Shown here in pieces: positions 4,115-30,407 of a stretch of DNA of 32,000 nt. The notes below the pieces were generated by a model. The model ran no database searches. It was not told the DNA's origin and saw only the letters and a program-made list of their open reading frames with translations. The stretch comes from Pseudoalteromonas tetraodonis (GTDB taxonomy: Bacteria; Pseudomonadota; Gammaproteobacteria; Enterobacterales; Alteromonadaceae), in contig NZ_CP011041.1 of assembly GCF_002310835.1 (NCBI RefSeq), forward strand, positions 180,001 through 212,000, in the 5' to 3' direction. Both the position numbers and the translations under genes were made by a program. How positions within the stretch are numbered: the stretch's first letter is position 1; the number at the start of each line of letters is the position of its first letter.

Positions 4115-5521
4115 TTAACAGCTGTAGTACATTTCGAACTCAACAGGGTGAGTTGTCATGTTAAGTTTTTCAACTTCTTTTGACTTAAGTGCGATGTAAG
4201 CATCGATTAGGTCATTGGTGAATACACCACCTTGGTTTAAGAATTCACGGTCTGAATCAAGTGCAGCTAGTGCTTCATCTAATGATGAGGCTACTGTTGG
4301 AATTTCTGCCGCTTCTTCAGCTGGTAAGTCGTATAAATCCTTGTCCATAGCATCGCCAGGGTGGATCTTGTTTTTAATTCCGTCAAGGCCAGCCATAAGC
4401 ATTGCTGAGAAAGCAAGGTATGGGTTAGCTGTTGGATCTGGGAAGCGTACTTCGATACGACGACCTTTTGCAGATGGCACAACTGGAATACGGATTGACG
4501 CCGAACGGTTACGAGCCGAGTATGCAAGCATTACCGGAGCTTCAAAACCAGGTACTAAACGTTTGTACGAGTTAGTTGACGCGTTAGCAAAAGCGTTGAT
4601 CGCTTTAGCATGTTTGATGATACCGCCAATGTAGTAAAGTGCATCTTCAGAAAGTCCGCCGTATTTATCACCTGCGAATAAGTTTACGCCATCTTTTGCT
4701 AAAGACTGGTGACAGTGCATACCAGAACCGTTATCACCAACAACCGGCTTAGGCATAAATGTTGCCGTTTTACCGTAAAGGTGAGCCATGTTGTGGATAA
4801 CATATTTCATTTCTTGGATTTCATCGGCCTTTAACACCATAGTATTAAAACGCGTTGCGATCTCGTTTTGACCGGCAGTCGCCACTTCGTGGTGATGCGC
4901 TTCAACAACTTGACCCATTTCTTCTAAAACTAGGCACGTTGCAGAACGCCAATCTTGGAAATCATCAACAGGTGCAACTGGGAAGTAACCGCCTTTAACA
5001 CCTGGGCGATGGCCTGTATTGCCATCTGCATATTCTTTATCTGAGTTCCAAGCTGCTTGCTTAGAATCAATTTTATACATTGAACCTGACATGTCAGATT
5101 TGTATTTAACATCGTCAAATACGAAAAACTCTGGTTCTGGGCCAAATAAAACAGTGTCAGCAATACCCGTAGAGCGCATGTACTCTTCAGCGCGCTTAGC
5201 AACTGAGCGAGGGTCGCGTTCGTAACCTTGTAATGTAGAAGGTTCAACCACGTCACAACGAACGATTAGTGTTGTTTCTTCTGTGAAAGGGTCAAGTTTA
5301 ATTGAATCTGCATCTGGTAGTAACACCATGTCTGATTCGTTGATGCCTTTCCAGCCAGCAATTGAAGAACCGTCAAACATCTTTCCATCTTCGAAAAAGT
5401 CTTCATCAACTTGATGATGAGGAATAGAAACATGTTGCTCTTTACCTTTTGTGTCAGTAAAGCGTAAATCAATGAACTTAACGTCATTTTCTTTAATAAA
5501 ATCTAAAACCGATTGTGACAT
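4115..5521 (-). CDS. glnA: Glutamine synthetase, type I
   Basis: The 468-aa product is collinear by eye with E. coli GlnA ([38 protein letters not shown]). The adenylylation-site context DLYDLP is conserved. Confidence 0.97.
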
Positions 5522-6029: not shown

Positions 6030-7853
6030 ATGAGCATCGAAAAGTTAAGAAATATAGCAATTATCGCCCACGTTGACCACGGTAAAACAACACTGGTTGA
6101 TAAACTACTTGAGCAATCAGGTACATTAGAAACACGCGGCGGTAATGAAGAGCGCGTGATGGATTCAAACGACATTGAAAAAGAACGTGGTATTACCATT
6201 TTAGCGAAAAACACCGCTATCTCTTGGAATGATTACCATATCAATATCGTAGATACTCCTGGACACGCCGACTTCGGTGGTGAAGTTGAACGCGTACTTT
6301 CGATGGCTGACTCAGTATTACTACTTGTTGATGCTCAGGAAGGTCCAATGCCACAAACGCGTTTCGTAACGCAAAAGGCATTCGCGCAAGGCTTAAAGCC
6401 AATCGTTGTTATCAATAAAATTGATAAGCCAGGTGCTCGCCCTGATTGGGTTATGGATCAAATCTTTGATTTATTCGACAACCTAGGCGCAACTGATGAA
6501 CAGTTAGACTTTAAAGTAATCTACGCATCAGCAATCAATGGTTGGGCTACATTAGATTTAGACGAAGCATCTGATAACATGGAACCTATGTTCAAGATGA
6601 TCGTTGACGAAGTATCACCACCGGATGCAGATCCTGAAGGTGACTTCCAAATGCAGATTTCACAGCTTGATTACAACTCTTATAAAGGTGTAATTGGCAT
6701 TGGTCGTATCAAACGCGGTTCAGTTGTACCTAACCAACAAGTTACGGTTATTAGCGCTGACGGGTCTAAACGTAACGGTAAAATTGGTTCAGTACAAAGC
6801 TACTTAGGTCTTGAGCGTATTGACACTGACAAAGCTTACGCTGGTAACATCGTAACGGTAACGGGTCTTGGCGAGCTTAAGATTTCAGATACGCTTTGTT
6901 GTCCTAACAACGTTGAAGCATTACCTCCACTAAGTGTTGATGAGCCAACAGTAACGATGACGTTCTCTGTAAATAACTCACCTTTCTGTGGTAAAGAAGG
7001 TAAGTTTGTAACATCACGTAATATCCGTGAGCGTTTAGACAAAGAATTAGTACACAACGTTGCACTTCGCGTTGCAGACACTGATAACCCAGATAGCTTC
7101 CGTGTATCGGGTCGTGGTGAATTACACTTAGGTATCTTAATCGAGAACATGCGTCGTGAAGGTTACGAGTTAGCGGTATCTCGTCCAGAAGTTATCTTAC
7201 GTACTGTTGATGGTGTGTTAGAAGAACCGTATGAAACACTAACAATTGACTGTCAAGAAGAGCACCAGGGTTCTATCATGGAACAAATTGGTCTTCGTAA
7301 GGGTGAGCTTACTGATATGGCCCCAGATGGTAAAGGCCGTATGCGTTTGGACTTTATGATCCCAAGCCGTGGTTTAATCGGTTTCCAAACTGAGTTCATG
7401 ACGTTAACATCGGGTTCTGGTTTACTTTACCATACGTTCGATCACTACGGTCCGCACAAAGGTGGCGAGCTAGGTGTTCGTAAGAACGGTGTAATGATTG
7501 CAAATGCAACAGGTAAAGCACTAACTAACGCATTATTTAACTTACAAGAGCGCGGCCGTTTATTCATCGGTCACGGTGTTGAAGTATACGAAGGTATGGT
7601 TATCGGTATTCATAGCCGTGATAACGACCTTACAGTTAATGCGCTTAAAGGTAAGCAACTTACTAACGTTCGTGCATCTGGTACCGATGAAGCACAAACA
7701 CTAACACCAGCTCTTAACTATTCACTTGAGCAAGCGCTTGAGTTTATTGCTGATGATGAGTTAGTAGAAGTTACACCTGAGAACATTCGTATTCGTAAAC
7801 GTCATTTAACTGAAAATGAGCGTAAACGTGCGGGTCGTGCGCCAAAGTCATAA
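6030..7853 (+). CDS. typA: Translational GTPase TypA/BipA
   Basis: GTPase motifs [17 protein letters not shown] and NKID are present. At 607 aa it has EF-G-like architecture. It is divergent from glnA, as in enterobacteria. Confidence 0.95.
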
Positions 7854-7878
7854 TCTATTAATTTAGAATCATGATTTT

Positions 7879-7915
7879 AAAAGCCGCTGTATTGCAAAAT
7901 ACAGCGGCTTTTTTG
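7879..7915 (+). terminator. Rho-independent terminator of typA
   Basis: AGCCGCTGTATT-GCAA-AATACAGCGGCT forms a 12-bp perfect stem followed by TTTTT. Confidence 0.88.
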
Positions 7916-8063
7916 TGGATAATAGTTAGCCAGAGAAGAGCGTAAGTCCACAGGTTAAAGCATCGCAGTTGGTTCGATACTGTTAAACAGTTTTTAATAT
8001 TGAACCTAAAAGAGGTATTAAGTTATTATCAAAGCTATATTTACTATGTGCGTGTGAGCTAGT

Positions 8064-8533: not shown

Positions 8534-9286
8534 TTAGTGATTACTTACTTTCGGTAGCAAGGTGATTTTCCCAAATACATCTGCATCTATAAATCCACGG
8601 TTTCTGTCACCGTTCACTGGCTTTACTTCGTGTGAGCCCATAAAGTGCTCACGAACTTTACTGCCGTCGTTATCGCAATATGCGAGCATAAAGCCAATAA
8701 CGTGTTTTTCAGTTAATTTAAGCGGAGTGTTTTGTGCGCCTTGTTGATAATCATTCGGGTAGAGTTTTATCGCCACTTCCCACGTGATGTTATAGGGCGC
8801 AGTGGTATTACGCTTCCAGCTACTAACTAAGTGGTCGGTATATAAATGCGCTTTTTTATCAGGGCCATAATCGGCTGCTTGGTTATCAAGACCAATGTGA
8901 TAAGCAAACGCGGTATGATTAAACTGATGATTCCCGCCCGATGCGTCACTATCTATAAACACTTCTAAGGCATCATCATCCCAGTATTTATCAGTTGGAT
9001 TTGGGTGAGTATCAATCAGCACATCGTCACTAATATCTGCTTGTAAATACAAGTAGTTTTCATCCCATAGAAGACGGTAGCGGCCTTTAAAATCGGCATC
9101 TGATGAGGGAAGTGCGCCATCCATTAGGTGCGGCATAGGATGCCATGTGGCGCTATCCCATGTACTTTCAGAGACACCATCAATAATAATAGCTGTTGAT
9201 GTATAACTAACTTCAATAGCCATAAGTGGTTGGGTGAAAAGTAAACTAAAAGCGAGTAGTGTTTTTTTCATTAATAAGCTCATCAA
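8534..9286 (-). CDS. Secreted CBM9/DOMON-like carbohydrate-binding family protein
   Basis: A signal peptide (KKTLLAFSLLFTQPLMA) is followed by the pattern WDENYLYLQADISDDVL...DDALEVFID, typical of family-9 carbohydrate-binding-like domains. The true start may be the downstream MKK (9271). Confidence 0.55.
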   Translation of the reverse strand: MMSLLMKKTLLAFSLLFTQPLMAIEVSYTSTAIIIDGVSESTWDSATWHPMPHLMDGALPSSDADFKGRYRLLWDENYLYLQADISDDVLIDTHPNPTDKYWDDDALEVFIDSDASGGNHQFNHTAFAYHIGLDNQAADYGPDKKAHLYTDHLVSSWKRNTTAPYNITWEVAIKLYPNDYQQGAQNTPLKLTEKHVIGFMLAYCDNDGSKVREHFMGSHEVKPVNGDRNRGFIDADVFGKITLLPKVSNH

Positions 9287-9350
9287 TTAAAGATGATTTA
9301 GCTTGGCTTAAATAGCAATTAAAAACAATCTCATAGTTGTATTTATTATA

Positions 9351-9776
9351 TTAACTTATTGCCCCAGTTATGCTTGTTTTTAATGCCAACATTAATAAAT
9401 GCGCGCTTTCACCCGACATTTTAAAAGGGTTAAAGTCAATGTTACCCGAGTATTTTAGATTAAGTAATTCGGTTAGCTGTGATTGCGGCACATAGCCCAT
9501 TGACCATGTTTCAAACTCTCTTTCGGGAATTTGGGTATAGTTGAGCATAATTACATTGTGGTGGCGTTTGTCATTTAATATTTGTTGATAGGTATTATTA
9601 ACAGCGGTTCTGGAGCCTTCAAGGCATTGTAAAAAGTACTCATTACTAAAACATAACATGCCGGTGACATTTGTTTTTACATTGTAGGTTCGCGCACTTT
9701 GTAAAATATTTTCTATATCTTCAGGCCCAAAACCACTACTTATTTTACTGGCGTAAATGAGTCGCACAAGAAACAT
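9351..9776 (-). CDS. Short BLUF-domain blue-light photoreceptor
   Basis: The BLUF signature layout is present: RLIYASK..., DIENILQSAR..N....TGML, FLQCLEG and W.MGY. At 141 aa it has no output domain. Confidence 0.85.
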   Translation of the reverse strand: MFLVRLIYASKISSGFGPEDIENILQSARTYNVKTNVTGMLCFSNEYFLQCLEGSRTAVNNTYQQILNDKRHHNVIMLNYTQIPEREFETWSMGYVPQSQLTELLNLKYSGNIDFNPFKMSGESAHLLMLALKTSITGAIS

Positions 9777-9824
9777 AAAACCCCCTGACTGTTTAGTTAA
9801 TTAAAGATAGTTCAGTGAGGGGGT
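9777..9824 (-). terminator. Hairpin plus U-tract: terminator of the upstream MBL gene that also contains the BLUF Shine-Dalgarno
   Basis: The minus-strand RNA reads CCCCCUCACUG-(21 nt loop)-CAGUCAGGGGG-UUUU-AUG. Ten of 11 stem positions pair. The AUG is the BLUF start. Confidence 0.6.
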
Positions 9825-9864
9825 TATTACTAATTATGTAAACGTATTTTGCGTAAATGACTAA

Positions 9865-10956
9865 TTAAAGCTGGATGCTTTCACCTTCATTTAAAATATA
9901 CAGAGGTATCTTCGAGTTCATTTTTTTATGCATATGCAATAAGCGCAGTAGTGCAGAGTGGCTGCTGTGATCGCCCATCTTCCAACTTGAGTTACCATAG
10001 CCCCACGGTATCATTACTTTACAGTTAAGCGCTTGTGCTGCGGTTAATGCATCCTCAGGAGTGGTATGTACATAACGGTACCAGTTGCCGTTCTCTTTAT
10101 GGTAATAAGAGGCAATAGGCATTAAGCACACATCGATATCGCCATATTTTTGCTGTATATCGTTAAAGTGTTTTGAATAACCAGTGTCGCCTGCAAAAAA
10201 TAAAGTGCTGCCACTTTGCTCAAGTAACCAGCCATTCCATAGGTCTTTATTGTTATCTTCATAAATAAAAGGCACTAAAACACGACTACTAAAATGATGC
10301 GCAGGTAGCGCATGAATGGTTAAATCATCAATTTTAGTTTTTGCATACCATGCCATTTCACTAATGTTAAAGCCACCTGTTGGAAAGTTATCAGCCATAC
10401 CAAGGGGGGTTAGGTAGCGAGGCTGATTACCAATTTCTTCAATATCGGCTTTATTGAAATGATCGTAGTGAATGTGAGAATACATAACGGCGACTAAGTT
10501 TTTCAATTCATTGTCTGTGAGCCAGTCGCCAGGCTTGCGATAAAATCCTGAAGTAAGGCGAAAAGCTAAATCAATAGGCGAGTCAAATTGCTCTTTTACG
10601 GGATCAAACACAACTTGTTGGCCATTCGGGGTTTTGATCACAAAGCCTGCGTGTCCGAGCCAACGAATAGTAAAGCCCGCATTAACCTGCGGATTTTTTT
10701 GCTGACCTTGATATTGGCAGTTTTCAGCCTCTGTTTCACAAACTAAGTTATTGTTTTTTGGGTAGCAATCAGTTTCACAGCTAACAGGATAACTTTTTTT
10801 GCCTGGGTAGAGGTTGTGGTAGCGCCCAGCTTGCTCACCTTGTTGATGAAGTGGAATAACGGTATTAGGGCCAGCAATAACCTCAATATTATTCGCAGTG
10901 CTGCATGCAACGAGCACACTGGAGGCGATGATTAAGCTAAGTGTATGTATTTTCAT
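9865..10956 (-). CDS. MBL-fold metallo-hydrolase lipoprotein
   Basis: It has a lipobox (LVACS), a Cys-rich N-terminal segment, the metallo-beta-lactamase motif HIHYDHF and later GDTGY. Confidence 0.75.
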   Translation of the reverse strand: MKIHTLSLIIASSVLVACSTANNIEVIAGPNTVIPLHQQGEQAGRYHNLYPGKKSYPVSCETDCYPKNNNLVCETEAENCQYQGQQKNPQVNAGFTIRWLGHAGFVIKTPNGQQVVFDPVKEQFDSPIDLAFRLTSGFYRKPGDWLTDNELKNLVAVMYSHIHYDHFNKADIEEIGNQPRYLTPLGMADNFPTGGFNISEMAWYAKTKIDDLTIHALPAHHFSSRVLVPFIYEDNNKDLWNGWLLEQSGSTLFFAGDTGYSKHFNDIQQKYGDIDVCLMPIASYYHKENGNWYRYVHTTPEDALTAAQALNCKVMIPWGYGNSSWKMGDHSSHSALLRLLHMHKKMNSKIPLYILNEGESIQL

Positions 10957-14019: not shown

Positions 14020-14913
14020 ATGTTTCAAGTGAGCACCCCACAAAGTAGTGAAGACTGGCAAGCCTATTACCAATTACGCTGGCAGGTTTTACGTGCCCCA
14101 TGGGGCGAACCTCGGGGCTCTGAGCAAGACGATTTAGAGCAAGAGGCTGAGCATCGCTTCATTAAAAATAAAGCGGGTGAAGTATTGGGTGTGGCTCGTT
14201 TGCACTTTAATAATCAGCAACAAGCTCAAGTACGTTATATGGCGGTTGCAGAGGGTAATCGTAATCAACATATTGGTAGCCGCTTGTTACATGAACTCGA
14301 AAAAATAGCGTGGAATCAAGATGCTGATGAGTTAGTGTTGTTTGCTCGCGAACGTGCACTGGAATTTTATCAGCGCCATGGCTATGAAAATAAAGAAAAA
14401 GCACATTTGGCTTATGGTGATGTACAGCATTATAAAATGGTTAAGCTCAAACCGAGTGAACCAGGTTGGTTTCGCCACCCAAATTGGACTCAAGTACTGC
14501 AAAACACATGGCGTGAATCAATCCCCATTAGTGATGCAATGGGAATAAAAGTTGAAAGTTACACAGATTGGCAATTTACTACTCGTGCAGATTTAAATGC
14601 TAACTTAAATTTACACAACACTATGTTTGCAGGCTCTATTTATAGCCTAGCTACATTAACGGGTTGGGGTGCAACGTATTTAGCATTAAAAGAAGCCGGG
14701 CTTGAAGGGAATATCGTGTTAGCAGATGCCAACATTAAGTATTTAAAGCCACTGAATACTGACCCTAAGGGCTGTGTGAATATTCAAACCTGTAAAGGGA
14801 ACTTAAATGAGTTACAAGATGCGGGTAAAGCAAGTTACCTAGTGCCGGTAACCATTTTTGATGGTGACGAGGTGGTTGCTCAATTTGAAGGGCAGTTTGT
14901 GGTTAAAAAATAA
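14020..14913 (+). CDS. yiiD: Bifunctional GNAT acetyltransferase / hotdog thioesterase (YiiD/FabY family)
   Basis: An N-terminal GNAT core (RYMAVAEGNRNQHIGSRLL) is fused to a C-terminal YiiD_C-like thioesterase fold. The synteny yihY-dtd-yiiD matches E. coli. Confidence 0.8.
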   Translation: MFQVSTPQSSEDWQAYYQLRWQVLRAPWGEPRGSEQDDLEQEAEHRFIKNKAGEVLGVARLHFNNQQQAQVRYMAVAEGNRNQHIGSRLLHELEKIAWNQDADELVLFARERALEFYQRHGYENKEKAHLAYGDVQHYKMVKLKPSEPGWFRHPNWTQVLQNTWRESIPISDAMGIKVESYTDWQFTTRADLNANLNLHNTMFAGSIYSLATLTGWGATYLALKEAGLEGNIVLADANIKYLKPLNTDPKGCVNIQTCKGNLNELQDAGKASYLVPVTIFDGDEVVAQFEGQFVVKK

Positions 14914-14967: not shown

Positions 14968-15999
14968 TTACAGTAAATCTGTCAGTAATATACCCACACC
15001 AAAGCGTTCAATATCGGTGTTATAGTCTATCAAGCTCTCGCCATAGCCATTAAAATATTGTGCGTAGCCGCGAACTCTTCCCCATAATGGGAATGACCAA
15101 TCAAGCTGAATTGCCCCGCGGTTATCTGAATTTAAATTATTGCGAGTCATAAAACTAAATTCATGATCGTGAAAGCGATACGCGCCACCAAATTCAAAGT
15201 AACCCATGTATTTATAGATATCAGGGTTATCGTCACCTCGTGCATCTAACGGCGCAGGCTTTTTGTTTTCAGGAATGCGATACCAAGGTTTAAAGCTAAA
15301 TACAAAGCCGTCTTTTTCCCAAATGAAATCGGCATAAATGCGATTCCAAGAACGCGAGTTTGGCTGACTACGACCATTAGATTGGTGCGAAATACCAATG
15401 GCTATTGCCATTTCATCGCCCCATAAAACGTTTTCAGGATCTAAGTAATTAATCCAAAATACTTCTGGCTCGTAGTTGGTTTCACGAAAAGGGGAAGAAA
15501 TATCGTCGTTATATACTTGCCAGTATGACTGCAAAGTAAAGCCAAAAAATATCGCCTGGTCTGAGTCAGCAAACTCATCATACAAAGGCACTTTAATTGA
15601 TAGCTGATATTTAGCTTCTAGGTTATCAAGTGGGTCGCCATCTTTTTTATCGGTTAACTCTGCAAATCCATCAAACGGGCGAGTGTTTGGGTTCGACATA
15701 TAAGAAACAGGTAAAATATAATTACGTTTATGCGGGGTAATTACATTACGATTTTTTTTACCAACCGCCTCACGGGCTTGGCGTTTGTCGATAGCCGTTA
15801 GCTGCTTGCTTTCTTCAACGGCAGAACACTTTTTACGTAATTGATCGAGGGTTTGCTTACCGTCTCCACCGATCACTTCATTTAAAATACATTGCTTTAC
15901 CAGCTCAAGTTCATTGTTTTGCTCGTTATTCGCTGTTTCTTCAGCGACAACGGTTGTGCTGAGTAATGTAGAAAGTAGTATCCAATGGCGCCAACTCAT
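14968..15999 (-). CDS. pldA: Outer-membrane phospholipase A
   Basis: It has a signal peptide, the FRETNYEPE motif and the catalytic HQSNGRS...SRSWNR block characteristic of OMPLA. Confidence 0.88.
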   Translation of the reverse strand: MSWRHWILLSTLLSTTVVAEETANNEQNNELELVKQCILNEVIGGDGKQTLDQLRKKCSAVEESKQLTAIDKRQAREAVGKKNRNVITPHKRNYILPVSYMSNPNTRPFDGFAELTDKKDGDPLDNLEAKYQLSIKVPLYDEFADSDQAIFFGFTLQSYWQVYNDDISSPFRETNYEPEVFWINYLDPENVLWGDEMAIAIGISHQSNGRSQPNSRSWNRIYADFIWEKDGFVFSFKPWYRIPENKKPAPLDARGDDNPDIYKYMGYFEFGGAYRFHDHEFSFMTRNNLNSDNRGAIQLDWSFPLWGRVRGYAQYFNGYGESLIDYNTDIERFGVGILLTDLL

Positions 16000-16094
16000 T
16001 ATAATTCCTTTGTAAGTGAGGGAAGTCAGTATTTTGCTAATTATAGCGCCTTTTTAACACATAAACGGTGAATTTTTCCTGAATTTTAATACTT

Positions 16095-16123
16095 TAAAAA
16101 GAAAAGCGACCTAAGTCGCTTTT
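16095..16123 (-). terminator. Rho-independent terminator ending the riboswitch-controlled operon
   Basis: The minus strand reads AAAAGCGAC-TTAG-GTCGCTTTT followed by CTTTTT, about 55 nt after the stop at 16177. Confidence 0.75.
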
Positions 16124-16176
16124 ACTGTGTAACTAGTTGTTTACTAGCTAACTCTCACGCAATGAGAAGGGGTGAG

Positions 16177-17298
16177 CTAAAGCTCAAAGACGTTAGTAAA
16201 AAATTTATACAGCTCGGTACCTTGATTCACACTCGCTGAGGCAAAATGCAATATCGCAATTGCATCGAGATCAAAGCTTAGAGTTTGCAGCGGTTGTTCG
16301 CTTAAATAGCGCTCCATGCGCAGTATTTTAGCAATGGGTTCTCCAGCTTTAACATGCCCGCCAAGAGGTGCTAGGTATTCGACCATGCCACCCATGGGGG
16401 CGTAATAAGCAATATAATCATTTAGTTGGCAGCCATATCTTGTCATCAATTTTGGCTTGTAGGGGGCATCAACAAATACTTGCTTATGATTTAAATAACT
16501 TAAAATACTATTGGCATCGTCTAGTGCCGCGCTTAAATCGATTTTTTCTTGGCTGCCAAGCTCTACCGTAAAGGCTTCAACTTGCACGTTAAATTCACGC
16601 CCTTGCTGAGCAAGTTGCTCACTAAGCTGCCACCATGGACAAAAGCTTGCTTCATCCATTGCGCCATCAAAGGCATTAGGAATAACCAGCACATGGGGAA
16701 TATTAAAGTAACGCGCGCTATCGGTCGCATACTCAGGGCAATATAAGTGCTGACTAGAAATAGGGCCGGTGTGTAAATCTAAAACTATATCTGCTTGATG
16801 CGCCAATTTTTGTAAGTTTAGCGCAATCCGTTTCCCCGTTGTTAAACGATAATCAGGGCCGTTGAGTTGTTGCTCAACGTCATTAATTAACGCGGCTTTA
16901 AAGGCTGTTTTCAGAATCTTATCATCGGCATCGCTGAACTGCTGTGCAAACTGGGTCGCCAGTTTATTATTGCAGTGATACATGCGATTCCAATTAGTCC
17001 CCGTAATGGGATCGAATCGGCCAAGGGTAAATTCCCCCGACTTTTGATTACAGCCAATGGGGTTAGCGTAAGGAACTAAGGTAATATCACCTTTTAAATT
17101 AAGTGTTTTTAGTTGCTCAAGTAATTGGTAAATTACCGCGTTGCCTTGCACTTCTGCGCCATGCATATTTGCTTGTACATACACACTTGGGCCGGTGCCA
17201 TCGCCTTTTAAACGATACACAGGAATAGTCAGTGGTAGTCCGTTTGCGACTTCGCCAACTACAATGTTTTCTTGGCTTATAGCTATGGTGTTATTCAT
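16177..17298 (-). CDS. Succinylglutamate desuccinylase/aspartoacylase (AstE/AspA) family zinc hydrolase
   Basis: Zn-ligand contexts typical of the family are present (NMHGAEVQGN and LDLHTGP). I prefer the start MNNTIAIS (17298), 5 nt after the upstream stop. The track start at 17346 would overlap the upstream gene by 43 nt. Confidence 0.8.
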   Translation of the reverse strand: MNNTIAISQENIVVGEVANGLPLTIPVYRLKGDGTGPSVYVQANMHGAEVQGNAVIYQLLEQLKTLNLKGDITLVPYANPIGCNQKSGEFTLGRFDPITGTNWNRMYHCNNKLATQFAQQFSDADDKILKTAFKAALINDVEQQLNGPDYRLTTGKRIALNLQKLAHQADIVLDLHTGPISSQHLYCPEYATDSARYFNIPHVLVIPNAFDGAMDEASFCPWWQLSEQLAQQGREFNVQVEAFTVELGSQEKIDLSAALDDANSILSYLNHKQVFVDAPYKPKLMTRYGCQLNDYIAYYAPMGGMVEYLAPLGGHVKAGEPIAKILRMERYLSEQPLQTLSFDLDAIAILHFASASVNQGTELYKFFTNVFEL

Positions 17299-17303
17299 CT
17301 TTT

Positions 17304-18509
17304 TTATCTCAAGTAGTGGCTTGCATCTTCTGCTTGTCGCACGCAACTCAATACGCCATTGTGGATAACATATTCACCGGCCAGCTCATGGCATAAAAAG
17401 TACGGCATACTTTCGGTAAAACCGTAGGCACCGCATTGACTAAATACTAGCCAGTCTTGCTCATTTAAATCACTGGGTAATTGGTGCTCTCCTAAGCAAT
17501 CAAGTGCAGTACATAAGGGGCCGTATAGGCTCATTGCTTGATTTGCTGCGTTTGAATCTCGTAATAAACGCGCAGGGAAATCTTGACTGGTGACCGCAGG
17601 GCGCAATAAATGATTAATGCCGCCGCTCATAATCACCTGTTGTTGGCCGTAATTTAGTTTACGCTCAACAACAGGTGTGGCGTAGTGGCCGCATTCGCCT
17701 ACAGCGTAGCGACCTAGTTCCATCCATAGCTCAGTAACCCCCGCATCGCATTTAATTTTTGCAAGCGCCTCTATGAGTGCATCCCAACTTAGAGTGGGCG
17801 TATCAAGCGTATAGGGAATACCTAAACCACCACCTAAATCCAGCACCTTGAGGTTAATATTTAAATCCTCAGCAAGTTGCCTTAACGGCGTAATCATTTG
17901 TGTCCACAGCTCAGCGAGTTTGTCGCTGCTAAGCATGTTGCCCCACTGAAAAATATGCAGACCGTCAAAATTAAGTGCACAGTAGTCACTGGTATTTAGC
18001 GCCTGCCACTCGTCGCACCCTAAGCCAAATGGAGTAAGACTATCGCCCCCTAGCGGGTTTTTATCACCCTCGGGCCAGCGTAATTGTACCCTTAATAAAA
18101 CCTGCAACTGGCACTGCTGAGCAATCGCTTGTTCGTTGAGCCAACGTACCTGATTGAGACTTTCGGCCACAAAGGTACGCACGCCACGCGCAATAAAGTG
18201 CTTAATTTGTTTAGGGCTTTTTGCAGGCCCCGTGTTGAGCACGCGTTCACTGTTAATTCCTTGAGCAAGGACTTGCTCAAGCTCGCCTTTACTGGCGACA
18301 TCAAAGTTAAAACCAGCGTTATTTAAGCGTTGGATCACGCTAGATAACGGGTTCGCTTTAACTGCATACCAGAGTTTTACCTCGGTTTGTGCCACTAAAC
18401 GCGTTAAATGTGTGTTTAGTGAATCAAGATCATAAACAAAAAAGGGCGTATCAAGCTCAGTTGCTAGCTTATCAATAGCGGTTTTAACGGGCGTGCTCAA
18501 AAAGGTCAT
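17304..18509 (-). CDS. PLP-dependent group IV decarboxylase, diaminopimelate-decarboxylase-like
   Basis: It has the PLP-lysine motif YAVKANP, then GGGLGIPY, ELGRY and GPLCT..D, which align by eye with E. coli LysA. Its start overlaps the dapD-like stop (ATGA-type coupling). Confidence 0.78.
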   Translation of the reverse strand: MTFLSTPVKTAIDKLATELDTPFFVYDLDSLNTHLTRLVAQTEVKLWYAVKANPLSSVIQRLNNAGFNFDVASKGELEQVLAQGINSERVLNTGPAKSPKQIKHFIARGVRTFVAESLNQVRWLNEQAIAQQCQLQVLLRVQLRWPEGDKNPLGGDSLTPFGLGCDEWQALNTSDYCALNFDGLHIFQWGNMLSSDKLAELWTQMITPLRQLAEDLNINLKVLDLGGGLGIPYTLDTPTLSWDALIEALAKIKCDAGVTELWMELGRYAVGECGHYATPVVERKLNYGQQQVIMSGGINHLLRPAVTSQDFPARLLRDSNAANQAMSLYGPLCTALDCLGEHQLPSDLNEQDWLVFSQCGAYGFTESMPYFLCHELAGEYVIHNGVLSCVRQAEDASHYLR

Positions 18510-19249
18510 TAACGTAAAACCTCTTCAAGCAATAATGACGCATCACTTTGCTCGTCACGGTATTTAACAATTAACGCACACGACATGCTTAAGCCTTGCT
18601 CGCGCGCCCAATCGTTTGACGCAGGGCGAGATCCAGGGATCACAATCGCGTATTCAGGGATTGCTTCGCCTTTATCAAGCTGGCGCTCATTTACGCAGTC
18701 ATAAACAGGGATGGTTGCAGATAAGCGAACACCTGGGGCAAGTACCGCGCCTTTTTTAACTACCACGCCTTCAACAATCACACAGCCTGCACCAATGAAT
18801 GCATCGTCTTCTATGACCACAGGGCTGGCACCAATGGGCTCAAGTACTCCGCCTAATTGTACCGCTGCGCTTAAATGCACATTTTTACCTACTTGAGCAC
18901 ACGACCCTACGAGCGCGTGGCTATCTACCATAGTGCCCTCGTCAATAAATGCACCAATATTTACGTACGCAGGTGGCATAATAATAGTGCCTTTGGCAAC
19001 ATGTGCACCACGGCGCACACTTGAACCACCGGGTACCATGCGAACGCCTGCTGTGGCTTCAAAGCTTTGCGGCGCTAAGTTATGTTTATCAACAAAACCG
19101 CCAGCAAACTCGGTGTTTTGACCGTTTTTAAAGGCTTCTAAAATGCCTTGCTTTACTTCTACGTTAGCGTGCCATTGGCCGTTTTCGTCTTGTGTTGCTG
19201 CGCGAACCGCGCCCGTTTCTAAATTATTTAATAGTTCTAACCAGTTCAT
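18509..19249 (-). CDS. dapD: Tetrahydrodipicolinate N-succinyl(acyl)transferase, DapD-like (short form)
   Basis: The block PPAYVNIGAFIDEGTMVDSHALVGSCAQVGKNVHLSAAVQLGGVLEP is near-identical to the E. coli DapD hexapeptide core. It lacks about 30 N-terminal residues relative to E. coli DapD. Confidence 0.82.
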   Translation of the reverse strand: MNWLELLNNLETGAVRAATQDENGQWHANVEVKQGILEAFKNGQNTEFAGGFVDKHNLAPQSFEATAGVRMVPGGSSVRRGAHVAKGTIIMPPAYVNIGAFIDEGTMVDSHALVGSCAQVGKNVHLSAAVQLGGVLEPIGASPVVIEDDAFIGAGCVIVEGVVVKKGAVLAPGVRLSATIPVYDCVNERQLDKGEAIPEYAIVIPGSRPASNDWAREQGLSMSCALIVKYRDEQSDASLLLEEVLR

Positions 19250-19264
19250 TATAAAAACCTGTAT

Positions 19265-20149
19265 TTAATGCCAAGATAAAATGGTGTTGTTTGCCGATGA
19301 AATGTCATCTGTGTGTGTCAGCTCAAGGTGTGTTAAAGGTGGGCGTAAATACGGACTGCCAATACGCCCTTGTAAATGCATTAACACTTTGACTGGGATA
19401 GGGTTGGCTACTGAAAATAAGCTATTGATAGCACTAGACCACTGGACAAAAAGATTAGGGTGTTGGCCGCTTAAACTGCGCTTTACAAACTCATGGGTTT
19501 GCACTGGCCATGCATTGGCTGCAACCGACACTAAACCTTTTGCACCTGCTTGGGCAAAATAAGGCATGAGGGCATCGTCACCACTAAAAATGGCTAGTTC
19601 AGGCGCTGCTTGTCGATAGGCTTCAAATTGAGAGATAGAGCCACTGGCTTCTTTCAGTGCCCATAAATTTTTATGTTGTTTGAGGTTTTCAATGGTTGCA
19701 ATGGGAATGCTAACCGCACTACGTCCTGGTACGTTATAAAGCATACAAGGATGAGAACTGGCATTGAGTAAGCTTTCAAACCAATGCGTTTGCCCCACTG
19801 CACCGGGTTTGGCATACAAAGGCGAGCCGAGTAAAAAACCATGGATAGGCAGCTGGTTGCAGTAATTAACCCATTCAAGCTGTTGCTTTAAGTTACTACC
19901 GCCTACCGCAACCATAAGGGGGACGCTCGGCTGTAATTGGCAGACATGCTCTACGATGGCTTGCTGTTCTTTGAGGGTAAGGGCTAACCCTTCGCCGGTG
20001 CTACCTAGCAGTAAAATGCCATTGTTAGCGGCTTCTTGTTCGGCCACCAAGGTGTCTAAGGTTGCGTAATCAACTAGGCCATTTTGATCAAATGGGGTGA
20101 TCAGCGCAGTCCATAAATGGAAATTGTTAATATTGAAGTTGTTGATCAT
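19265..20149 (-). CDS. dapA: 4-hydroxy-tetrahydrodipicolinate synthase, DapA-like
   Basis: DHDPS/NAL family motifs are present: GSTGEG, LYNVPGRS (with the Arg used for aspartate-semialdehyde binding in DHDPS), the Schiff-base Lys in ALKEASG, and NPIPVK. Confidence 0.82.
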   Translation of the reverse strand: MINNFNINNFHLWTALITPFDQNGLVDYATLDTLVAEQEAANNGILLLGSTGEGLALTLKEQQAIVEHVCQLQPSVPLMVAVGGSNLKQQLEWVNYCNQLPIHGFLLGSPLYAKPGAVGQTHWFESLLNASSHPCMLYNVPGRSAVSIPIATIENLKQHKNLWALKEASGSISQFEAYRQAAPELAIFSGDDALMPYFAQAGAKGLVSVAANAWPVQTHEFVKRSLSGQHPNLFVQWSSAINSLFSVANPIPVKVLMHLQGRIGSPYLRPPLTHLELTHTDDISSANNTILSWH

Positions 20150-20251
20150 CTCTCACGAACTTATAGGGCATTCGTCGAGTTTTTGGCGGGTATTTAGGAT
20201 GCCTGACTCTTTGAATGTGTTTATAATTCGAAGAGCGAATGGGCTTAAATA

Positions 20252-20450
20252 ATAGGGCGCACGGCCTTATTATACTAAGACCAGAAGCTCTCCACCAAAT
20301 ATGTTATTGGTGACAGTCGCTAGGATTCAGCCTAGTCGCCCGAAGCAACCTTTCACAAAAAAGTGTTACCTCTCGGCGTTAATTCCCCTCACGTATGCTC
20401 AATGGAGTTTGCGCTCCTAACATACGCTACCTGAATAACGCACCTCTTCC
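20252..20450 (-). promoter_or_regulatory. Lysine riboswitch (L-box) aptamer in the leader of the dapA-like operon
   Basis: The minus-strand RNA contains AGAGGUGCG, then GCGUAUG..GGAG..CUCC..CAUACGU GAGGGG, then ACGCCGAGAGG, then CUAGGCUGAAUCCUAG, then CUGUCACCAA...UUGGUGGAGAGCUUCUGG, then GUGCGCCCU. The order and wording match the conserved L-box blocks of E. coli lysC and B. subtilis lysC leaders as I remember them. Confidence 0.85.
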
Positions 20451-20514
20451 AGCCCTTTGCACTTGCTATTGAAAAATCAATCAGCAAATACAATGTAATA
20501 GGGTAAGTGTGGCG

Positions 20515-20544
20515 ATTAAACCACTTTAGCCGTCTAGGTGTCAA
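20515..20544 (-). promoter_or_regulatory. Candidate sigma-70 promoter for the riboswitch transcript
   Basis: The minus strand reads TTGACA-18 nt-TTTAAT, about 60 nt upstream of the aptamer 5' end. This rests on sequence pattern only. Confidence 0.3.
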
Positions 20545-20643
20545 GTGACTAAATATAGATAGATTCATCCTGATTGACAGTTATTACGTATTAGCTGCTT
20601 TTCTCGTACACTAGTACTATTGTCGAAGTAAGGTATTAAGCAG

Positions 20644-21342
20644 ATGGAAAAATTTAGTGATATTTATAAGCGAGCGGTAGAGCGAAAGGGCTCTGAAAAA
20701 ATGCTTAAGTTGTTACTCGCAAAACCTTTATCAACAAAGCAACTCGTCACATTAAGTGATGATGATTGGCTAGAAGAATTTACTCGGAAAGTTTTTCAAA
20801 GTGGTTTTTATTGGTCGGTGATCAACAGTAAGTGGGCCGGATTTAGAGAGGTTTTCTGGGATTTCAATGTTGAAAAACTATTGATGATGCCACCGGATAT
20901 GCTTGAGCAAAAAGCCAGTGATGAGCGGATTGTACGCAACTATAAAAAAGTAAAAACTATTACTGAAAATGCGTATATGATCCACGAAGTTGCAGAGCAA
21001 TACGGCAGCTTTAGTGAGTTTATTGCTAACTGGCCAAGTGAAGATATTATTGGCTTGTGGGCGTATTTAAAAAAGCATGGTGCAAGGCTTGGTGGTAATA
21101 CCGGCCCTTATGCGCTGCGCGCCTTAGGAAAAGATACTTTTTTACTTTCAAGAGACGTAGAAAGCTATTTGCGTGCCCATAAAATTATAGATGGCGGATT
21201 ACAAACTAAAAAGTCACTAAGTGCGGCGCAGGCATTCTTTAATGAACTGCAGCAGCAAAGCGGCTTAAGCATGCAAGAGCTAAGCTTAATTGTCGCTTAT
21301 GGTGTAGGTGACAATCGCGTAGGTATCAGCCAAAAACAATAG
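20644..21342 (+). CDS. DNA-3-methyladenine glycosylase I (Tag)-like helix-hairpin-helix protein
   Basis: The central region aligns by eye with E. coli Tag (QSGFYWSVINSKWAGFREVF vs QAGLSWITVLKKRENYRACF; IVRNYKKVKTITENA vs IIRHRGKIQAIIGNA). The Tag N-terminal Zn and catalytic residues are not evident. Confidence 0.6.
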   Translation: MEKFSDIYKRAVERKGSEKMLKLLLAKPLSTKQLVTLSDDDWLEEFTRKVFQSGFYWSVINSKWAGFREVFWDFNVEKLLMMPPDMLEQKASDERIVRNYKKVKTITENAYMIHEVAEQYGSFSEFIANWPSEDIIGLWAYLKKHGARLGGNTGPYALRALGKDTFLLSRDVESYLRAHKIIDGGLQTKKSLSAAQAFFNELQQQSGLSMQELSLIVAYGVGDNRVGISQKQ

Positions 21343-27199: not shown

Positions 27200-27832
27200 A
27201 TGACCGCATTAAACAACCAGAATTTACTGCAACTTCGTTTTATTAACCAAGCCAATATTGATTTGGTTAAGCCTTCTTTTGATAACTTACCTGCAAATCC
27301 TTATGCAGATGGTGCGTTTCGTAAACGCCGTTATTCAGTGGTTAAATTACAAAATGGTGAGCTTAATCTTCAAGCGACCAAAGCGTTTGTGCAAGACGAT
27401 TCAATTAATACCTTTCAAGGTAATGTTGAGCGTACTTACGAAAACTTAGAGCAAAGCTTGCTTGAGTCTGAGGGTATGAAAAGCATTGTTAGCGAATTTG
27501 CAGCGATCACCGGCATTGACGCAGAGCGTGATATTGAAATTCACCAATTTAGAATGCTTGCCATTGATAGCGATACGCCAGCAGCTCCAGAAGGTGTGCA
27601 TCAAGATGGGTTTGACCATGTGTGTGTATGTGGTGTTTCTCATGAAAATTTAGAAGGTGGTGAGCTATTGGTTTATGAAAACCAACAAGCTGAACCGTGT
27701 TTTAAAATGGAAATAAAAGACGGCATGTTTGCACTAATTAATGACCGTCAGGTATGGCATAACGCCACGCCAATGAACAAAATTGATGCTAACAAACCAG
27801 GTTACCTGGATTGCTTTGTACTAACTGCTTAA
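27200..27832 (+). CDS. 2OG-Fe dioxygenase family protein (PF10014-type, free-amino-acid hydroxylase-like)
   Basis: The facial-triad context is GVHQDGFDH ... VWHNATP. The size (210 aa) and motif layout fit the family that includes L-isoleucine dioxygenase IDO. Confidence 0.7.
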   Translation: MTALNNQNLLQLRFINQANIDLVKPSFDNLPANPYADGAFRKRRYSVVKLQNGELNLQATKAFVQDDSINTFQGNVERTYENLEQSLLESEGMKSIVSEFAAITGIDAERDIEIHQFRMLAIDSDTPAAPEGVHQDGFDHVCVCGVSHENLEGGELLVYENQQAEPCFKMEIKDGMFALINDRQVWHNATPMNKIDANKPGYLDCFVLTA

Positions 27833-27842
27833 GAGAAATAAA

Positions 27843-29075
27843 ATGAATTTAATGCAATTGCGCGCGCAATTTCCTGCTTTAATGCAAACTGTTGATGGCA
27901 AGTCACCGGTGTTTTTAGATGGGCCAGGTGGCTCACAAGTACCTCAGTCGGTACTCAATGCCATGACCGCTTATTTAGGGCATTACAATTCAAACTTGGG
28001 CGGTGCGTTTTTCTCAAGTGACAAAACGGTTGAGCTGATGGCGAATGCGCGTCAAGCGGCGGCTGATTTGTTAAATGCGCCCAGTGCACAAAATATTGTG
28101 TTTGGCCCTAATATGACTAGCCTAACATTTAGCTTTAGCCGAGCAATTTCACGCAATTGGCAAGCAGGTGATGAAATTATAGTGACCAATGCTGATCATT
28201 TTTCAAATGTATCGTCTTGGCAGCAAGCCGCTGAAGATAAAGGCGCAGTGGTTAACACAGCGCTAATTAACGAAGCCGATTGTAGTTTAGATATGGCGCA
28301 TTTTGAAAGCTTATTAAACGCTAACACTAAATTGGTTGCGGTTACGTATGCATCAAATACCACTGGCTCTATTAACGATATTAAACGTATTATAGAGCTT
28401 GCTCATAATGTGGGTGCGTTGGTGTATGTTGATGCGGTGCATTATGCGCCACATGAACTGATTGATGTACAAGCGTTAGATTGCGACTTTTTAGCTTGTT
28501 CTGCATATAAGTTTTTTGGCCCGCACTTAGGCATGGTTTATGGTAAAACTGAGCACTTAGAAGGGTTTACACCTTATAAAGTAGAGCCAGCAAAAGATGT
28601 TGCACCAGGTCGCTGGGAAACCGGCACACAAAGTTTTGAGGCACTTGCAGGCTTTATTGCGGCGGTTGATTACATAGCGGCGATTAGCGAACTTGATGAC
28701 AGTCACTCACGCCGAGAAAAATTACGTGTTGCGTTTGCTAAAACAAAACAACATGAAATGGCATTGAGTGAATACTTTTTAACGCGTCTAGTTAACTACC
28801 CAAAAATTAAGTTGTTTGGTATAGACGATTTAGAGCGTTTGAGTGAGCGTACCCCTACGTTCGCACTGACCTTTGAAGGGTTAGAGCCTCGCCAAGTGTC
28901 TGAATTTTTGGGTAAACAACATGTATGTGTATGGGATGGTAATTTTTACGCCCAAGGTTTATGCAAACAACTGGGTGTGCTTGATAAGGGCGGCGTAGTA
29001 CGCATTGGTTGTATGCACTACAACACCATTGAAGAGATGGACACTTTGTTTGACTTGTTTGATGAGCTGATTTGA
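27843..29075 (+). CDS. Class-V PLP-dependent aminotransferase / cysteine-desulfurase-like protein
   Basis: It has fold-type I class V motifs (ASNTTG, VYVDAVHYAP) and a PLP-lysine context SAYKFFGPH. It starts 10 nt after the dioxygenase stop and has its own AAGAG SD. Confidence 0.85.
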   Translation: MNLMQLRAQFPALMQTVDGKSPVFLDGPGGSQVPQSVLNAMTAYLGHYNSNLGGAFFSSDKTVELMANARQAAADLLNAPSAQNIVFGPNMTSLTFSFSRAISRNWQAGDEIIVTNADHFSNVSSWQQAAEDKGAVVNTALINEADCSLDMAHFESLLNANTKLVAVTYASNTTGSINDIKRIIELAHNVGALVYVDAVHYAPHELIDVQALDCDFLACSAYKFFGPHLGMVYGKTEHLEGFTPYKVEPAKDVAPGRWETGTQSFEALAGFIAAVDYIAAISELDDSHSRREKLRVAFAKTKQHEMALSEYFLTRLVNYPKIKLFGIDDLERLSERTPTFALTFEGLEPRQVSEFLGKQHVCVWDGNFYAQGLCKQLGVLDKGGVVRIGCMHYNTIEEMDTLFDLFDELI

Positions 29076-29077
29076 AG

Positions 29078-29147
29078 CTGTCAGCTATAAGCCGTCAGCT
29101 TTCAGTTTAATGCAAATACTTGACAGTAGTCAGCAGTTAGTTAATTT
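29078..29147. repeat. Ten degenerate heptads (consensus CTGTCAG), in phase with the perfect array
   Basis: Parsed in 7s from 29078, the units read CTGTCAG CTATAAG CCGTCAG CTTTCAG TTTAATG CAAATAC TTGACAG TAGTCAG CAGTTAG TTAATTT. Seven of 10 units match the consensus at 5 or more of 7 positions. The frame runs straight into the array at 29148. Confidence 0.75.
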
Positions 29148-29702
<555 letters not shown>

Positions 29703-30407
29703 TTAGCTTTGTGGCGTTCCATAAATTTGCTCTGCTCGATTAAACAAAACCCATGAGGTTAAAATATACTTATCGTTTGATACTGGCTTATTGCCTCTAT
29801 GTGTATGCGTAAAGTAGCCTGGGGCAATTACCATGCTGCCTTTTTTAGGGGCTATTTTACGATTTTGATAATAAAACTCGGTTTCTCCGCCTTCTTCAAC
29901 ATCATTTAAATAAAACATAAATAACAACACCCGATGCAGTGCTTCATTATGCTGTAGCTGCGGATACACCTCACTGTGCCAATACGGATAACCGCCTTTA
30001 TTTACTTCGTATTTTTGCGCTTGAATATTACCGAGTCTAAAAATTTGCTGTACCAATAAGGGGAGTTGTGGTTTACCTACCTCGTCATAGTTGGCGTGAG
30101 TTAAATCAACCGGTTGTCCTGTTTTTGGGTGATATACCTTTAAACCAAATGCCCCAATCATCATAAAAATATGTTCTTCAATGTAGTTGAAAACATACTG
30201 TGCAGTGGTTTGTTGAATATGTTTTAATTGTTCTGCGTATTCAGGATGATTGTTTAAGTATAAGTCGTGGCTATCTTTTTTATTAAGGTCAACACCGCCC
30301 GATGTCATCCCTTGTTTAATATGCGGGCTTTGAGAAAAGGTAGTGATAAAGTTATCGCAAAATTCATTACTGAGCGCGTTGTCATACACGCGGATAAAGT
30401 CCGTCAT
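29703..30407 (-). CDS. 2OG-Fe(II) oxygenase superfamily protein (prolyl-hydroxylase-like fold)
   Basis: It has an HxE/D...H pattern (YWHSE ... THTHRG), and GGETEF and ILTSW are typical of small bacterial/phage 2OG-Fe(II) oxygenases. Its TAA stop is separated from the heptamer array by 2 nt. Confidence 0.72.
   Translation of the reverse strand: MTDFIRVYDNALSNEFCDNFITTFSQSPHIKQGMTSGGVDLNKKDSHDLYLNNHPEYAEQLKHIQQTTAQYVFNYIEEHIFMMIGAFGLKVYHPKTGQPVDLTHANYDEVGKPQLPLLVQQIFRLGNIQAQKYEVNKGGYPYWHSEVYPQLQHNEALHRVLLFMFYLNDVEEGGETEFYYQNRKIAPKKGSMVIAPGYFTHTHRGNKPVSNDKYILTSWVLFNRAEQIYGTPQS

Follow-up and report, generated by a model that had tools for sequence, protein, structure and literature searches.

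A lysine-riboswitch operon of Pseudoalteromonas tetraodonis couples dapA and dapD to a non-standard LysA relative and an AstE/AspA-family hydrolase: a possible lysine-only branch of the succinylase diaminopimelate pathway

Lysine synthesis via diaminopimelate (DAP) is textbook metabolism that feeds both protein and the cell wall, as well as an antibiotic target for which inhibitors of DapE, DapF and LysA are pursued. The succinylase variant of this pathway, which employs DapD, DapC or ArgD, DapE, DapF and LysA, is the closest described relative of the locus analysed here, a four-gene operon of Pseudoalteromonas tetraodonis that lies behind a lysine riboswitch in a stretch of 32,000 nucleotides (assembly GCF_002310835.1, contig NZ_CP011041.1, positions 180,001 to 212,000 of the forward strand), hereafter the window. 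The operon encodes a DapA, a short DapD, a decarboxylase dependent on pyridoxal 5′-phosphate (PLP), here called dec, and a zinc hydrolase, here called X. With the succinylase pathway it shares the DapA/DapD trunk, a removable succinyl group, a final PLP-dependent decarboxylation and control by lysine. It differs, however, in the hydrolase, which is an M14-like member of the AstE/AspA family and not the M20 enzyme DapE, in the decarboxylase, which is devoid of the Glu and Tyr of the LysA distal site and scores below the cut-off of the LysA model, and in the proposed order of the reactions, as the known pathway does not include decarboxylation ahead of deprotection.

Other described systems resemble single parts of the operon. 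The CphZ/AotO hydrolases, in particular, have in common with X the zinc ligands, the catalytic Glu, an Arg/Asn/Arg clamp, an Asp-Glu pocket and the hydrolysis of an amino acid carrying a 4-carbon dicarboxylic acyl group on N2; nevertheless, the relationship is distant (94 bits over residues 10-326), CphZ D181 is replaced by Gly, and X is found among lysine genes whereas CphZ/AotO is found with cyanophycin genes or an aot transporter. As for dec, its best structure and NCBIfam matches fall in the group of the BtrK, SbnH, FslC and TIGR03099 decarboxylases, and BtrK has Cys-Thr for the Cys-Glu of LysA. Unlike the members of this group, dec has a LysA-like N-x-L-L-R-P-A motif and is encoded in lysine operons, not in antibiotic or siderophore clusters; moreover, it is no nearer to them than to LysA (120 bits with BtrK, 103 bits with Brucella LysA). 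An acyl mask that is later removed by a metallohydrolase is also used by the acetylase variant of the DAP pathway (with its M20D N-acetyl-DAP deacetylase) and by the arginine and LysW-type lysine pathways, although we know of no decarboxylation of protected DAP in any of them. An M20D amidohydrolase is likewise encoded next to one operon of the present kind (L092, below), convergent to it and directly after dec.

The operon itself was recorded in a 2017 survey of lysine riboswitches as 'dapA-dapD-lysA-hypothetical1-hypothetical2', confined to Pseudoalteromonas, together with a 'lysC-dapB-dapA-dapD-lysA' operon in Bacteriovorax marinus (PMC5584792). In contrast with the present analysis, that survey has the decarboxylase as lysA and the hydrolase as hypothetical, and contains neither the Shewanella lysC-X operons nor the cross-phylum module described below. 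Within the literature that was searched, an incomplete library, no paper was found in which an enzyme of the AstE family is connected with the synthesis of DAP or lysine, or in which N2-succinyl-lysine is named as an intermediate. This is in line with an earlier prediction made from the letters of this DNA (the original prediction), which was aware of no description of either of its two proposals for X, that is, a stand-in for DapE or a desuccinylase of N2-succinyl-lysine.

The reading that we put forward, with a confidence that stops somewhat short of even, is that the operon constitutes a lysine-repressible, lysine-only branch of the succinylase DAP pathway, in which dec would act on N-succinyl-DAP and X on N2-succinyl-lysine. 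Specifically, DapA, with a DapB encoded elsewhere, would supply tetrahydrodipicolinate, which the short DapD would succinylate, and an aminotransferase (encoded elsewhere in this genome, and possibly a class IV enzyme of the same operon in two distant lineages) would produce N-succinyl-DAP. At this point dec would remove CO2 from the free amino-acid end, the other end being still succinylated, to give N2-succinyl-L-lysine, and X would convert the latter into L-lysine and succinate. Such a route would need no DapE, DapF or LysA, and a constitutive supply of meso-DAP for the cell wall would be unaffected when lysine shuts the operon off. This reading is favoured because of the distal site of dec, the pairing of dapD with dec, an operon in which two decarboxylase types coexist (L125), near-complete operons devoid of DapE, DapF and LysA, and the CphZ-like pocket of X. 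It corresponds to what the original prediction had offered as a more radical alternative to its own first choice, and it now has more support from active sites and gene pairing than that first choice, neither of the two being proven.

The operon is organised as follows, in coordinates of the window:
20277..20456, minus strand: lysine riboswitch aptamer (Rfam RF00168, 102.5 bits, E = 1.9e-26, model positions 1-182 of 182)
20150..20276, minus strand: leader and presumed expression platform (from an RNA fold of 20140-20300)
19265-20149, minus strand: dapA, 4-hydroxy-tetrahydrodipicolinate synthase, 294 amino acids (aa), a divergent copy
18509-19249, minus strand: short-form dapD, tetrahydrodipicolinate N-succinyltransferase, 246 aa
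17304-18509, minus strand: dec, fold-type III PLP decarboxylase, 401 aa, proposed N-succinyl-diaminopimelate decarboxylase
16177-17298, minus strand: X, AstE/AspA-family (M14-like) zinc amidohydrolase, 373 aa, proposed pathway desuccinylase
16092..16123, minus strand: intrinsic terminator with a 9-bp stem (4 G-C pairs), a 4-nt loop and a T-rich tail

Read directly in the sequence, the junctions consist of TAA, 15 nt and ATG between dapA and dapD, of TAATG with one base in common at 18509 between dapD and dec, and of TAA, 5 nt and ATG between dec and X. The start of X was placed at the ATG at 17298 because the N-termini of its orthologues support it, the TTG at 17346 being an upstream extension of the open reading frame (ORF) call. 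The terminator stem spans 16102-16123 with the T-run after it, and represents the sole terminator-like site within 15900-20700. The four-gene layout, the junctions and the terminator had all been placed at these coordinates by the original prediction, and the control by a lysine riboswitch that it assumed is borne out by the RF00168 match 5′ of dapA, which covers the full aptamer and is well above the gathering score of 30. Likewise, the absence of DapB, DapC, DapE and DapF that it had noted holds across the whole 32-kb window, in which no lysine-synthesis gene was found besides the four of the operon.

When one genome per species was scanned with X, the 80 loci obtained all belonged to Pseudoalteromonas; dapA-dapD-dec-X is the gene order in 80/80 of them, and an aptamer-like sequence lies upstream of dapA in 80/80 (nhmmer). 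As both order and upstream sequence repeat throughout, the arrangement is more than chance. Equivalent operons occur in further lineages:
Colwellia (L081) and a marine metagenome-assembled genome (L082): riboswitch-dapA-dapD-dec-X
Ferrimonas marina (L090): riboswitch-lysC-dapD-dec-X
Halobacteriovorax, phylum Bdellovibrionota (L089): asd beside riboswitch-lysC-dapB-dapA-dapD-dec-X
Opitutae single-cell genome, Verrucomicrobiota (L091): asd-lysC-(class IV aminotransferase)-dapB-dapA-dapD-dec-X
L092 (OZ026533.1), a 1.1-Mb genome with 27% G+C at the locus: asd-lysC-aminotransferase-dapA-dapD-dec, then a convergent M20D amidohydrolase in the place of X

The equivalent operons of L080-L082, L084-L090 and L046 are preceded by Rfam matches to the lysine riboswitch. 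Moreover, in eight loci obtained by scanning metagenomes with a dec-family profile (L093-L100), X is directly 3′ of dec in 8/8 and dapD is directly 5′ of it in 6/6 with sequence available. Throughout, the genes of the dapD-dec-X block are contiguous and often overlap. No homologue of DapE or DapF was detected by tblastn in the dec-family module loci, no M20 or DAP-epimerase Pfam domain in those of L081, L082, L089, L090 and L091, and no LysA of the Cys-Glu type in the loci tabulated above or in L093-L100. In the near-complete operons of the Opitutae genome and of Halobacteriovorax, specifically, X is the sole hydrolase and DapE, DapF and a Cys-Glu-type LysA are all missing. X closes lysine-riboswitch operons of five architectures, across Gammaproteobacteria and Bdellovibrionota, and also ends the eight-gene aspartate-to-lysine operon of the Verrucomicrobiota genome. 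That dapD-dec-X forms a conserved module is well supported.

The in-operon class IV aminotransferases of L091 and L092, placed between lysC and dapB or dapA, are BCAT-like and reach 291-300 bits on NF005146, a model on which true IlvE scores 458; they are candidates for a new type of N-succinyl-aminoketopimelate aminotransferase. In about 38 Pseudoalteromonas loci, another class IV aminotransferase gene precedes the cassette at a distance of about 5 kb; it was set aside, being the ordinary ilvE of an ilvG-ilvE pair (458 bits on the BCAT model).

The original prediction had assigned dec to the DAP-decarboxylase family. This is correct for the fold, as both PF02784 and PF00278 match, and does not extend to a standard LysA, since the TIGR01048 score is 189 bits against a cut-off of 298. 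The best NCBIfam match is TIGR03099, an uncharacterised exosortase-associated decarboxylase; the nearest solved structures, ahead of any LysA, are BtrK (a decarboxylase of glutamate bound to acyl carrier protein, Glu-ACP) and SbnH, and orthologues with at least 80% identity carry the NCBI name 'PLP-dependent decarboxylase'. The substrates of BtrK and SbnH are amino acids conjugated, through an acyl or carrier group, at their far end. Dec has in common with E. coli LysA the residues K54, H189 (the stacking His), G227, E268, R271, R307, C342, D346 and Y378, whereas the positions of Y311 and E343 are both occupied by Thr. We take E343 of LysA to bind DAP at its distal amino group, which is free, and R307 together with Y311 to hold the distal carboxylate. 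The loss of Glu and Tyr with retention of Arg is thus the pattern that would be expected if the distal amino group were acylated. In terms of motifs, dec reads CTALD and R-P-A-V-T where LysA has CES(G/S)D, a motif supplied in trans, and the Arg/Tyr pair; the PLP-binding Lys, the stacking His and the Glu-Gly-Arg signature are present (EPGR reading ELGR), a feature of the whole fold-type III group and not specific to LysA.

These changes are characteristic of the family. All of 18 dec-family representatives have R307. Thr occupies position 343 in 17 of them and Met in the remaining one, and at position 311 there is Thr, Ile or Val in 16, with Gly or Ala in the other two. Furthermore, the 150 nearest cluster representatives from a library of 1.8 billion proteins show Cys-Thr in 112 cases and Cys-Glu in none (0/150). 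By comparison, the CES(G/S)D motif and the Arg/Tyr pair are conserved among the DAP decarboxylase orthologues considered in a structural study of the diatom enzyme (10.1101/2020.10.01.322594). Judged on these sequence features, dec is not a standard LysA. In the metagenome-assembled contig L082, the decarboxylase gene (8776-9994) is split into ORFs of 119 and 296 aa, reflecting either a sequencing frameshift or a pseudogene.

A relationship between decarboxylase type and gene neighbourhood emerged when 80 metagenome loci were sorted into three decarboxylase classes. Decarboxylases of the Cys-Thr or Cys-Ser type resembling dec (31-60% identical to its family) have dapD directly upstream in 13 of the 14 loci with enough sequence, whereas this was found for none of 27 Cys-Glu LysA-like genes (Fisher p = 8e-10, for loci that are not phylogenetically independent); the third class, further Cys-Thr decarboxylases with 27-31% identity, is not accompanied by dap genes. 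DapF lies directly downstream of 5/37 Cys-Glu LysA-like genes and of 0/12 Cys-Thr/Ser ones, a difference that is not significant (p = 0.32). One operon, L125, reads lysC-dapB-dapA-dapD-dec(Cys-Thr)-LysA-like(Cys-Glu)-DapL, so that both decarboxylase types coexist in it, the Cys-Thr one with DapD and the Cys-Glu one with DapL, whose product is LL-DAP free of succinyl; this locus yielded no homologue of DapF. Besides L125, loci L102-L107 and L166 carry a second decarboxylase group, 31-36% identical to dec and with a Cys-Ser or Cys-Thr motif, whose genes follow a short dapD with no X downstream and one member of which scores 276 bits against the LysA cut-off of 298.

This second group without X, as well as the position of the L125 pair beside an apparent second lysine route (DapL and the LysA-like enzyme), might be taken to mean that the product of the module is not lysine. 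That is, DapD and dec would make N2-succinyl-lysine or a related compound as an end product, such as a building block or signal, and X would be unrelated to them. We regard this as very improbable: lysine riboswitches usually switch off genes of lysine supply (PMC5584792), the operons hold lysine-pathway genes only, and X stands after dec in every locus of the family to which dec of the window belongs.

The assignment of X to the zinc hydrolases of the desuccinylase/aspartoacylase family, already made in the original prediction, is confirmed by PF24827 (AstE_AspA_cat; 104.6 bits, gathering score 25) and by an invariant zinc site. The only domain matches of X are PF24827 and the M14-like PF00246, with none to DapE or M20; a DapE-like role, if X had one, would be a matter of analogy and not of homology. 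In NCBIfam, X has only a weak match to DoeB (33 bits, with a cut-off of 403) and another that is negligible; it is not recognised as AstE proper, and its context is one of lysine genes, not an arginine succinyltransferase (AST) operon. Proteins 93-95% identical to X are found in two Pseudoalteromonas isolates, and two Shewanella structural-genomics entries without assigned function, PDB 3FMC and 3LWU, match it with E = 1e-135 and 1e-132, respectively. The nearest characterised relative is CphZ (8EIN, 8EIP), with E = 6e-26 for the single sequence and 9e-34 for the profile.

An alignment of 226 X sequences, comprising a Pseudoalteromonas/Colwelliaceae set of 119 and a Shewanella set of 107, provides a picture of the active site. 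Identical in all of them are H46, E49 and H176, which make up the His/Glu/His zinc site, the catalytic E246, and furthermore K86, R94, N104, R105, G178, D215 and E216. Of these residues, R94, N104, R105, D215, E216 and E246 correspond to R102, N112, R113, D222, E223 and E251 of CphZ. In the complex of CphZ with beta-Asp-Arg (8EIP), the alpha-carboxylate is clamped by R102, N112 and R113, the cationic side chain sits in a pocket made by D222 and E223, and E251 is the catalytic base, while D181 and K366 are close enough to the beta-aspartyl part for hydrogen bonds (PMC9974463). D181 aligns to Gly178 of X, which is Gly in 226/226 of these Alteromonadales sequences, and such a change would be expected if a succinyl group took the place of the beta-aspartyl group; K365 of X, the presumed counterpart of K366, is kept in 223/226. 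In the part of X from which the side-chain pocket is built, no conserved basic residue was found. By this reading, the preferred substrate of X would be an amino acid whose side chain resembles that of lysine and whose N2 carries an acyl group with a carboxylate and no amino group. N2-succinyl-L-lysine would fit such a pocket, and the distal ammonium group of N-succinyl-LL-DAP could occupy it as well.

The same likeness raises the possibility that X is a lysine-salvage enzyme, a CphZ-like hydrolase that would release lysine from beta-Asp-Lys or another N2-acyl-lysine in times of shortage and be attached to whichever lysine-riboswitch operon a genome possesses, with DapA, DapD and dec being extra standard copies. 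CphZ/AotO does cleave both beta-Asp-Arg and beta-Asp-Lys and its Arg/Lys-binding residues are present in X, which moreover is always the last gene, with varying partners, and is kept in some operons without dapD and dec. We consider salvage unlikely, however, given that X is the sole enzyme able to remove the succinyl group of DapD in the Opitutae and Halobacteriovorax operons, that it lies directly 3′ of dec in every one of the eight metagenome loci of the dec family, that no cyanophycinase, cyanophycin synthetase or aot-type transporter was found near X in the loci examined, and that X has Gly in place of the Asp by which CphZ contacts the beta-aspartyl moiety. X displays neither the D181 nor the cyanophycin/aot clustering that, along with a basic residue at position 366, mark the CphZ type, for which the authors of the CphZ study applied a search criterion of more than 30% identity to AbCphZ (PMC9974463). 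The same study reports that CphZ does not cleave N2-succinyl-arginine (PMC9974463), and the acyl specificity of X would therefore have to differ from that of CphZ.

There are also operons that have X and neither dapD nor dec. The arrangement is riboswitch-lysC-X in Shewanella (L084, L085), Parashewanella (L087) and Paraferrimonas (L086), with X at most 35 nt 3′ of lysC or overlapping it, and in Thalassomonas sp. M1454 (L088) it is riboswitch-dapA-X. Since the active-site residues of X are identical in both settings, its function is very probably the same whether dec is present or not. These operons are more readily explained if X is a non-homologous N-succinyl-LL-DAP desuccinylase, that is, a lysine-regulated analogue or isozyme of DapE, as the original prediction had preferred: N-succinyl-LL-DAP should be present wherever the canonical succinylase route runs, as is implied for S. 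oneidensis MR-1, and this accounts for the retention of X, its active site unchanged and dec missing, after lysC in Shewanella and after dapA in Thalassomonas; furthermore, every operon partner of X is a DAP-pathway enzyme. In this case dec would act on free DAP, either as a divergent meso-DAP decarboxylase with DapF encoded elsewhere or as an LL-DAP decarboxylase that bypasses DapF, and the operon would be a lysine-repressible second set of ordinary steps. The acidic pocket of X could accommodate DAP by its distal ammonium group, acceptance of LL-DAP is on record for a stereopromiscuous DAP decarboxylase (10.1101/2020.10.01.322594), and the second decarboxylase group comes near the LysA cut-off.

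On the other hand, dec lacks the Glu and Tyr that are conserved in the compared orthologues and does not reach the LysA model; the pairing of dec with dapD, as well as its coexistence with a Cys-Glu LysA-like enzyme and DapL in L125, would go unexplained; and a pocket with two acids and no conserved basic residue near them suits lysine better than the zwitterionic end of DAP. In addition, GapMind shows no lysine-pathway gap for S. oneidensis MR-1 (PMC7311316), so a canonical DapE is to be expected there and X would not be a mere replacement of it; a DapE-like X would be redundant in that strain, yet it is present genus-wide in Shewanella. In that genus X looks like an addition to DapE and not its substitute. 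Of the proposal that an AstE-like enzyme takes part in lysine synthesis instead of DapE, the first half is sustained by the position of X at the end of riboswitch operons of five architectures, and the words 'instead of DapE' are not established, in view of the Shewanella lysC-X operons. We hold a DapE-analogous X to be the main rival reading, quite possible if on balance doubtful.

Coming back to dec as a decarboxylase of succinylated DAP and X as a desuccinylase of N2-succinyl-lysine, several observations weigh against this preferred reading. The Shewanella, Parashewanella, Paraferrimonas and Thalassomonas loci have X with no dapD or dec adjacent to it, and Shewanella is absent from the named dec-family clusters; with no dec nearby in Shewanella and Thalassomonas, an X specific for N2-succinyl-lysine would have no obvious substrate, and the reading requires either a second use for X or a dec elsewhere in those genomes. 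Moreover, a dec-specific basic residue able to bind the succinyl carboxylate was searched for in the dec family and none was found, and the second decarboxylase group, with its Cys-Ser or Cys-Thr motif, could be a divergent LysA. In the X of the Opitutae genome the position of CphZ D181 is Asp, and in that of Halobacteriovorax the position of K365 is Gln, so that the argument from the acyl site is not universal. Lastly, aminotransferases of the BCAT-like kind encoded in the L091 and L092 operons would generate an L-centre, on which dec, unlike LysA, would then have to act.

Extending the proposal beyond the window, the module may represent a variant of the DAP pathway spread by horizontal transfer among Alteromonadales, Bdellovibrionota, Verrucomicrobiota and others, in which a LysA-derived enzyme would work on protected DAP and a CphZ-like enzyme would serve as desuccinylase; here too our confidence is tentative and slightly under even. 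If confirmed, a module that bypasses or replaces DapE, DapF and LysA would add two enzyme activities to the pathway map, and lysine synthesis would be uncoupled from these three enzymes and from the meso-DAP pool of the cell wall, an example of how lysine can be regulated without starving the wall of meso-DAP. Genome-based prediction of lysine prototrophy would change as well; GapMind, for example, lists unexplained DapE gaps in some Bacteroidota (PMC7311316). Furthermore, the family of 3FMC and 3LWU, whose structures are solved and lack an assigned function, would gain one. Even if X were an analogue of DapE, an M14-like enzyme doing the job of DapE would be a new case of non-orthologous displacement.

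The first two enzymes of the operon are divergent as well. DapA is a member of its family (TIGR00674, 261 bits against a cut-off of 206; PF00701) and has all the catalytic motifs GSTGE, LYNVPGR and LKEASG, with only 28% identity to E. coli DapA. DapD passes the broad NCBI model NF008808 (296 bits, cut-off 204) and falls short of the E. coli-type TIGR00965 (185 against 375); by these profile scores it is a DapD, not the E. coli-type orthologue. Across Pseudoalteromonas, DapD is the best-kept product of the cassette (83-96% identity) and DapA the least, going down to 55%. In one Pseudoalteromonas clade (L037-L043, dapA at about 7138-8019), DapA is 55-58% identical to that of the window whereas DapD is 86-90% and X 75-78% identical, which looks as if the dapA allele had been replaced in a cassette that was otherwise inherited vertically.

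Indirect evidence favours the cassette as an additional, horizontally spread dap set in the host genome, because of the low identity of DapA to the E. coli enzyme, the failure of DapD on the E. coli-type model, and the lack of dapD and dec in the equivalent operons of two lineages whose nearest relatives have both. These are Shewanella and Paraferrimonas, to be compared with Ferrimonas, and Thalassomonas M1454, to be compared with other Colwelliaceae, and in all of them the missing genes would probably have been lost. The searchable literature offered nothing of use on dapE, dapF or lysA in Pseudoalteromonas.

With regard to regulation, an alignment of DapA with the E. coli enzyme gives S48G, A49L, H53L, H56Q, N80S, E84Q and Y106L. 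S48, A49, H53, H56, N80, E84 and Y106 of E. coli DapA are presumably the residues of the lysine allosteric site and, since every one of them differs, DapA of the cassette may be insensitive to feedback by lysine; if this list of residues is right, the riboswitch may be its sole lysine control. The aptamer ends 127 nt before the dapA ATG. The fold of the leader (20140-20300) has a minimum free energy of -39.7 kcal/mol with z = -2.43, and includes a hairpin predicted at about 20152-20179, the 3′ arm of which overlaps part of a GAGAG Shine-Dalgarno-like sequence just 5′ of the ATG. The mode of the switch, translational or transcriptional, is a matter of inference.

Among neighbouring genes, one for an outer-membrane phospholipase A1 (PF02253, 338 bits; 14968-15999, 343 aa) lies on the same strand 3′ of the cassette, as it does in 79/80 Pseudoalteromonas loci. 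Being beyond the terminator, it was set aside as a neighbour and not counted as an operon member; it is probably 'hypothetical2' of the 2017 riboswitch survey. Just past it, at 14020-14913, is a gene for a GNAT acetyltransferase fused to a YiiD-type thioesterase (PF00583, PF09500), which is kept in most Pseudoalteromonas loci. In Parashewanella (L087), a group II intron with a reverse transcriptase (17301-17385) is located about 6 kb 3′ of lysC-X. Ordinary features of the window include, at 927-5521, glnA and the two-component genes ntrB and ntrC and, at 9351-9776, a stand-alone sensor of blue light of the BLUF type. At 27200-30407 of the window, finally, a protein with grass-antifreeze beta-roll repeats (PF21300, 29141-29722) is encoded amid two 2OG-Fe oxygenase genes and a class V aminotransferase gene, an odd small cluster.

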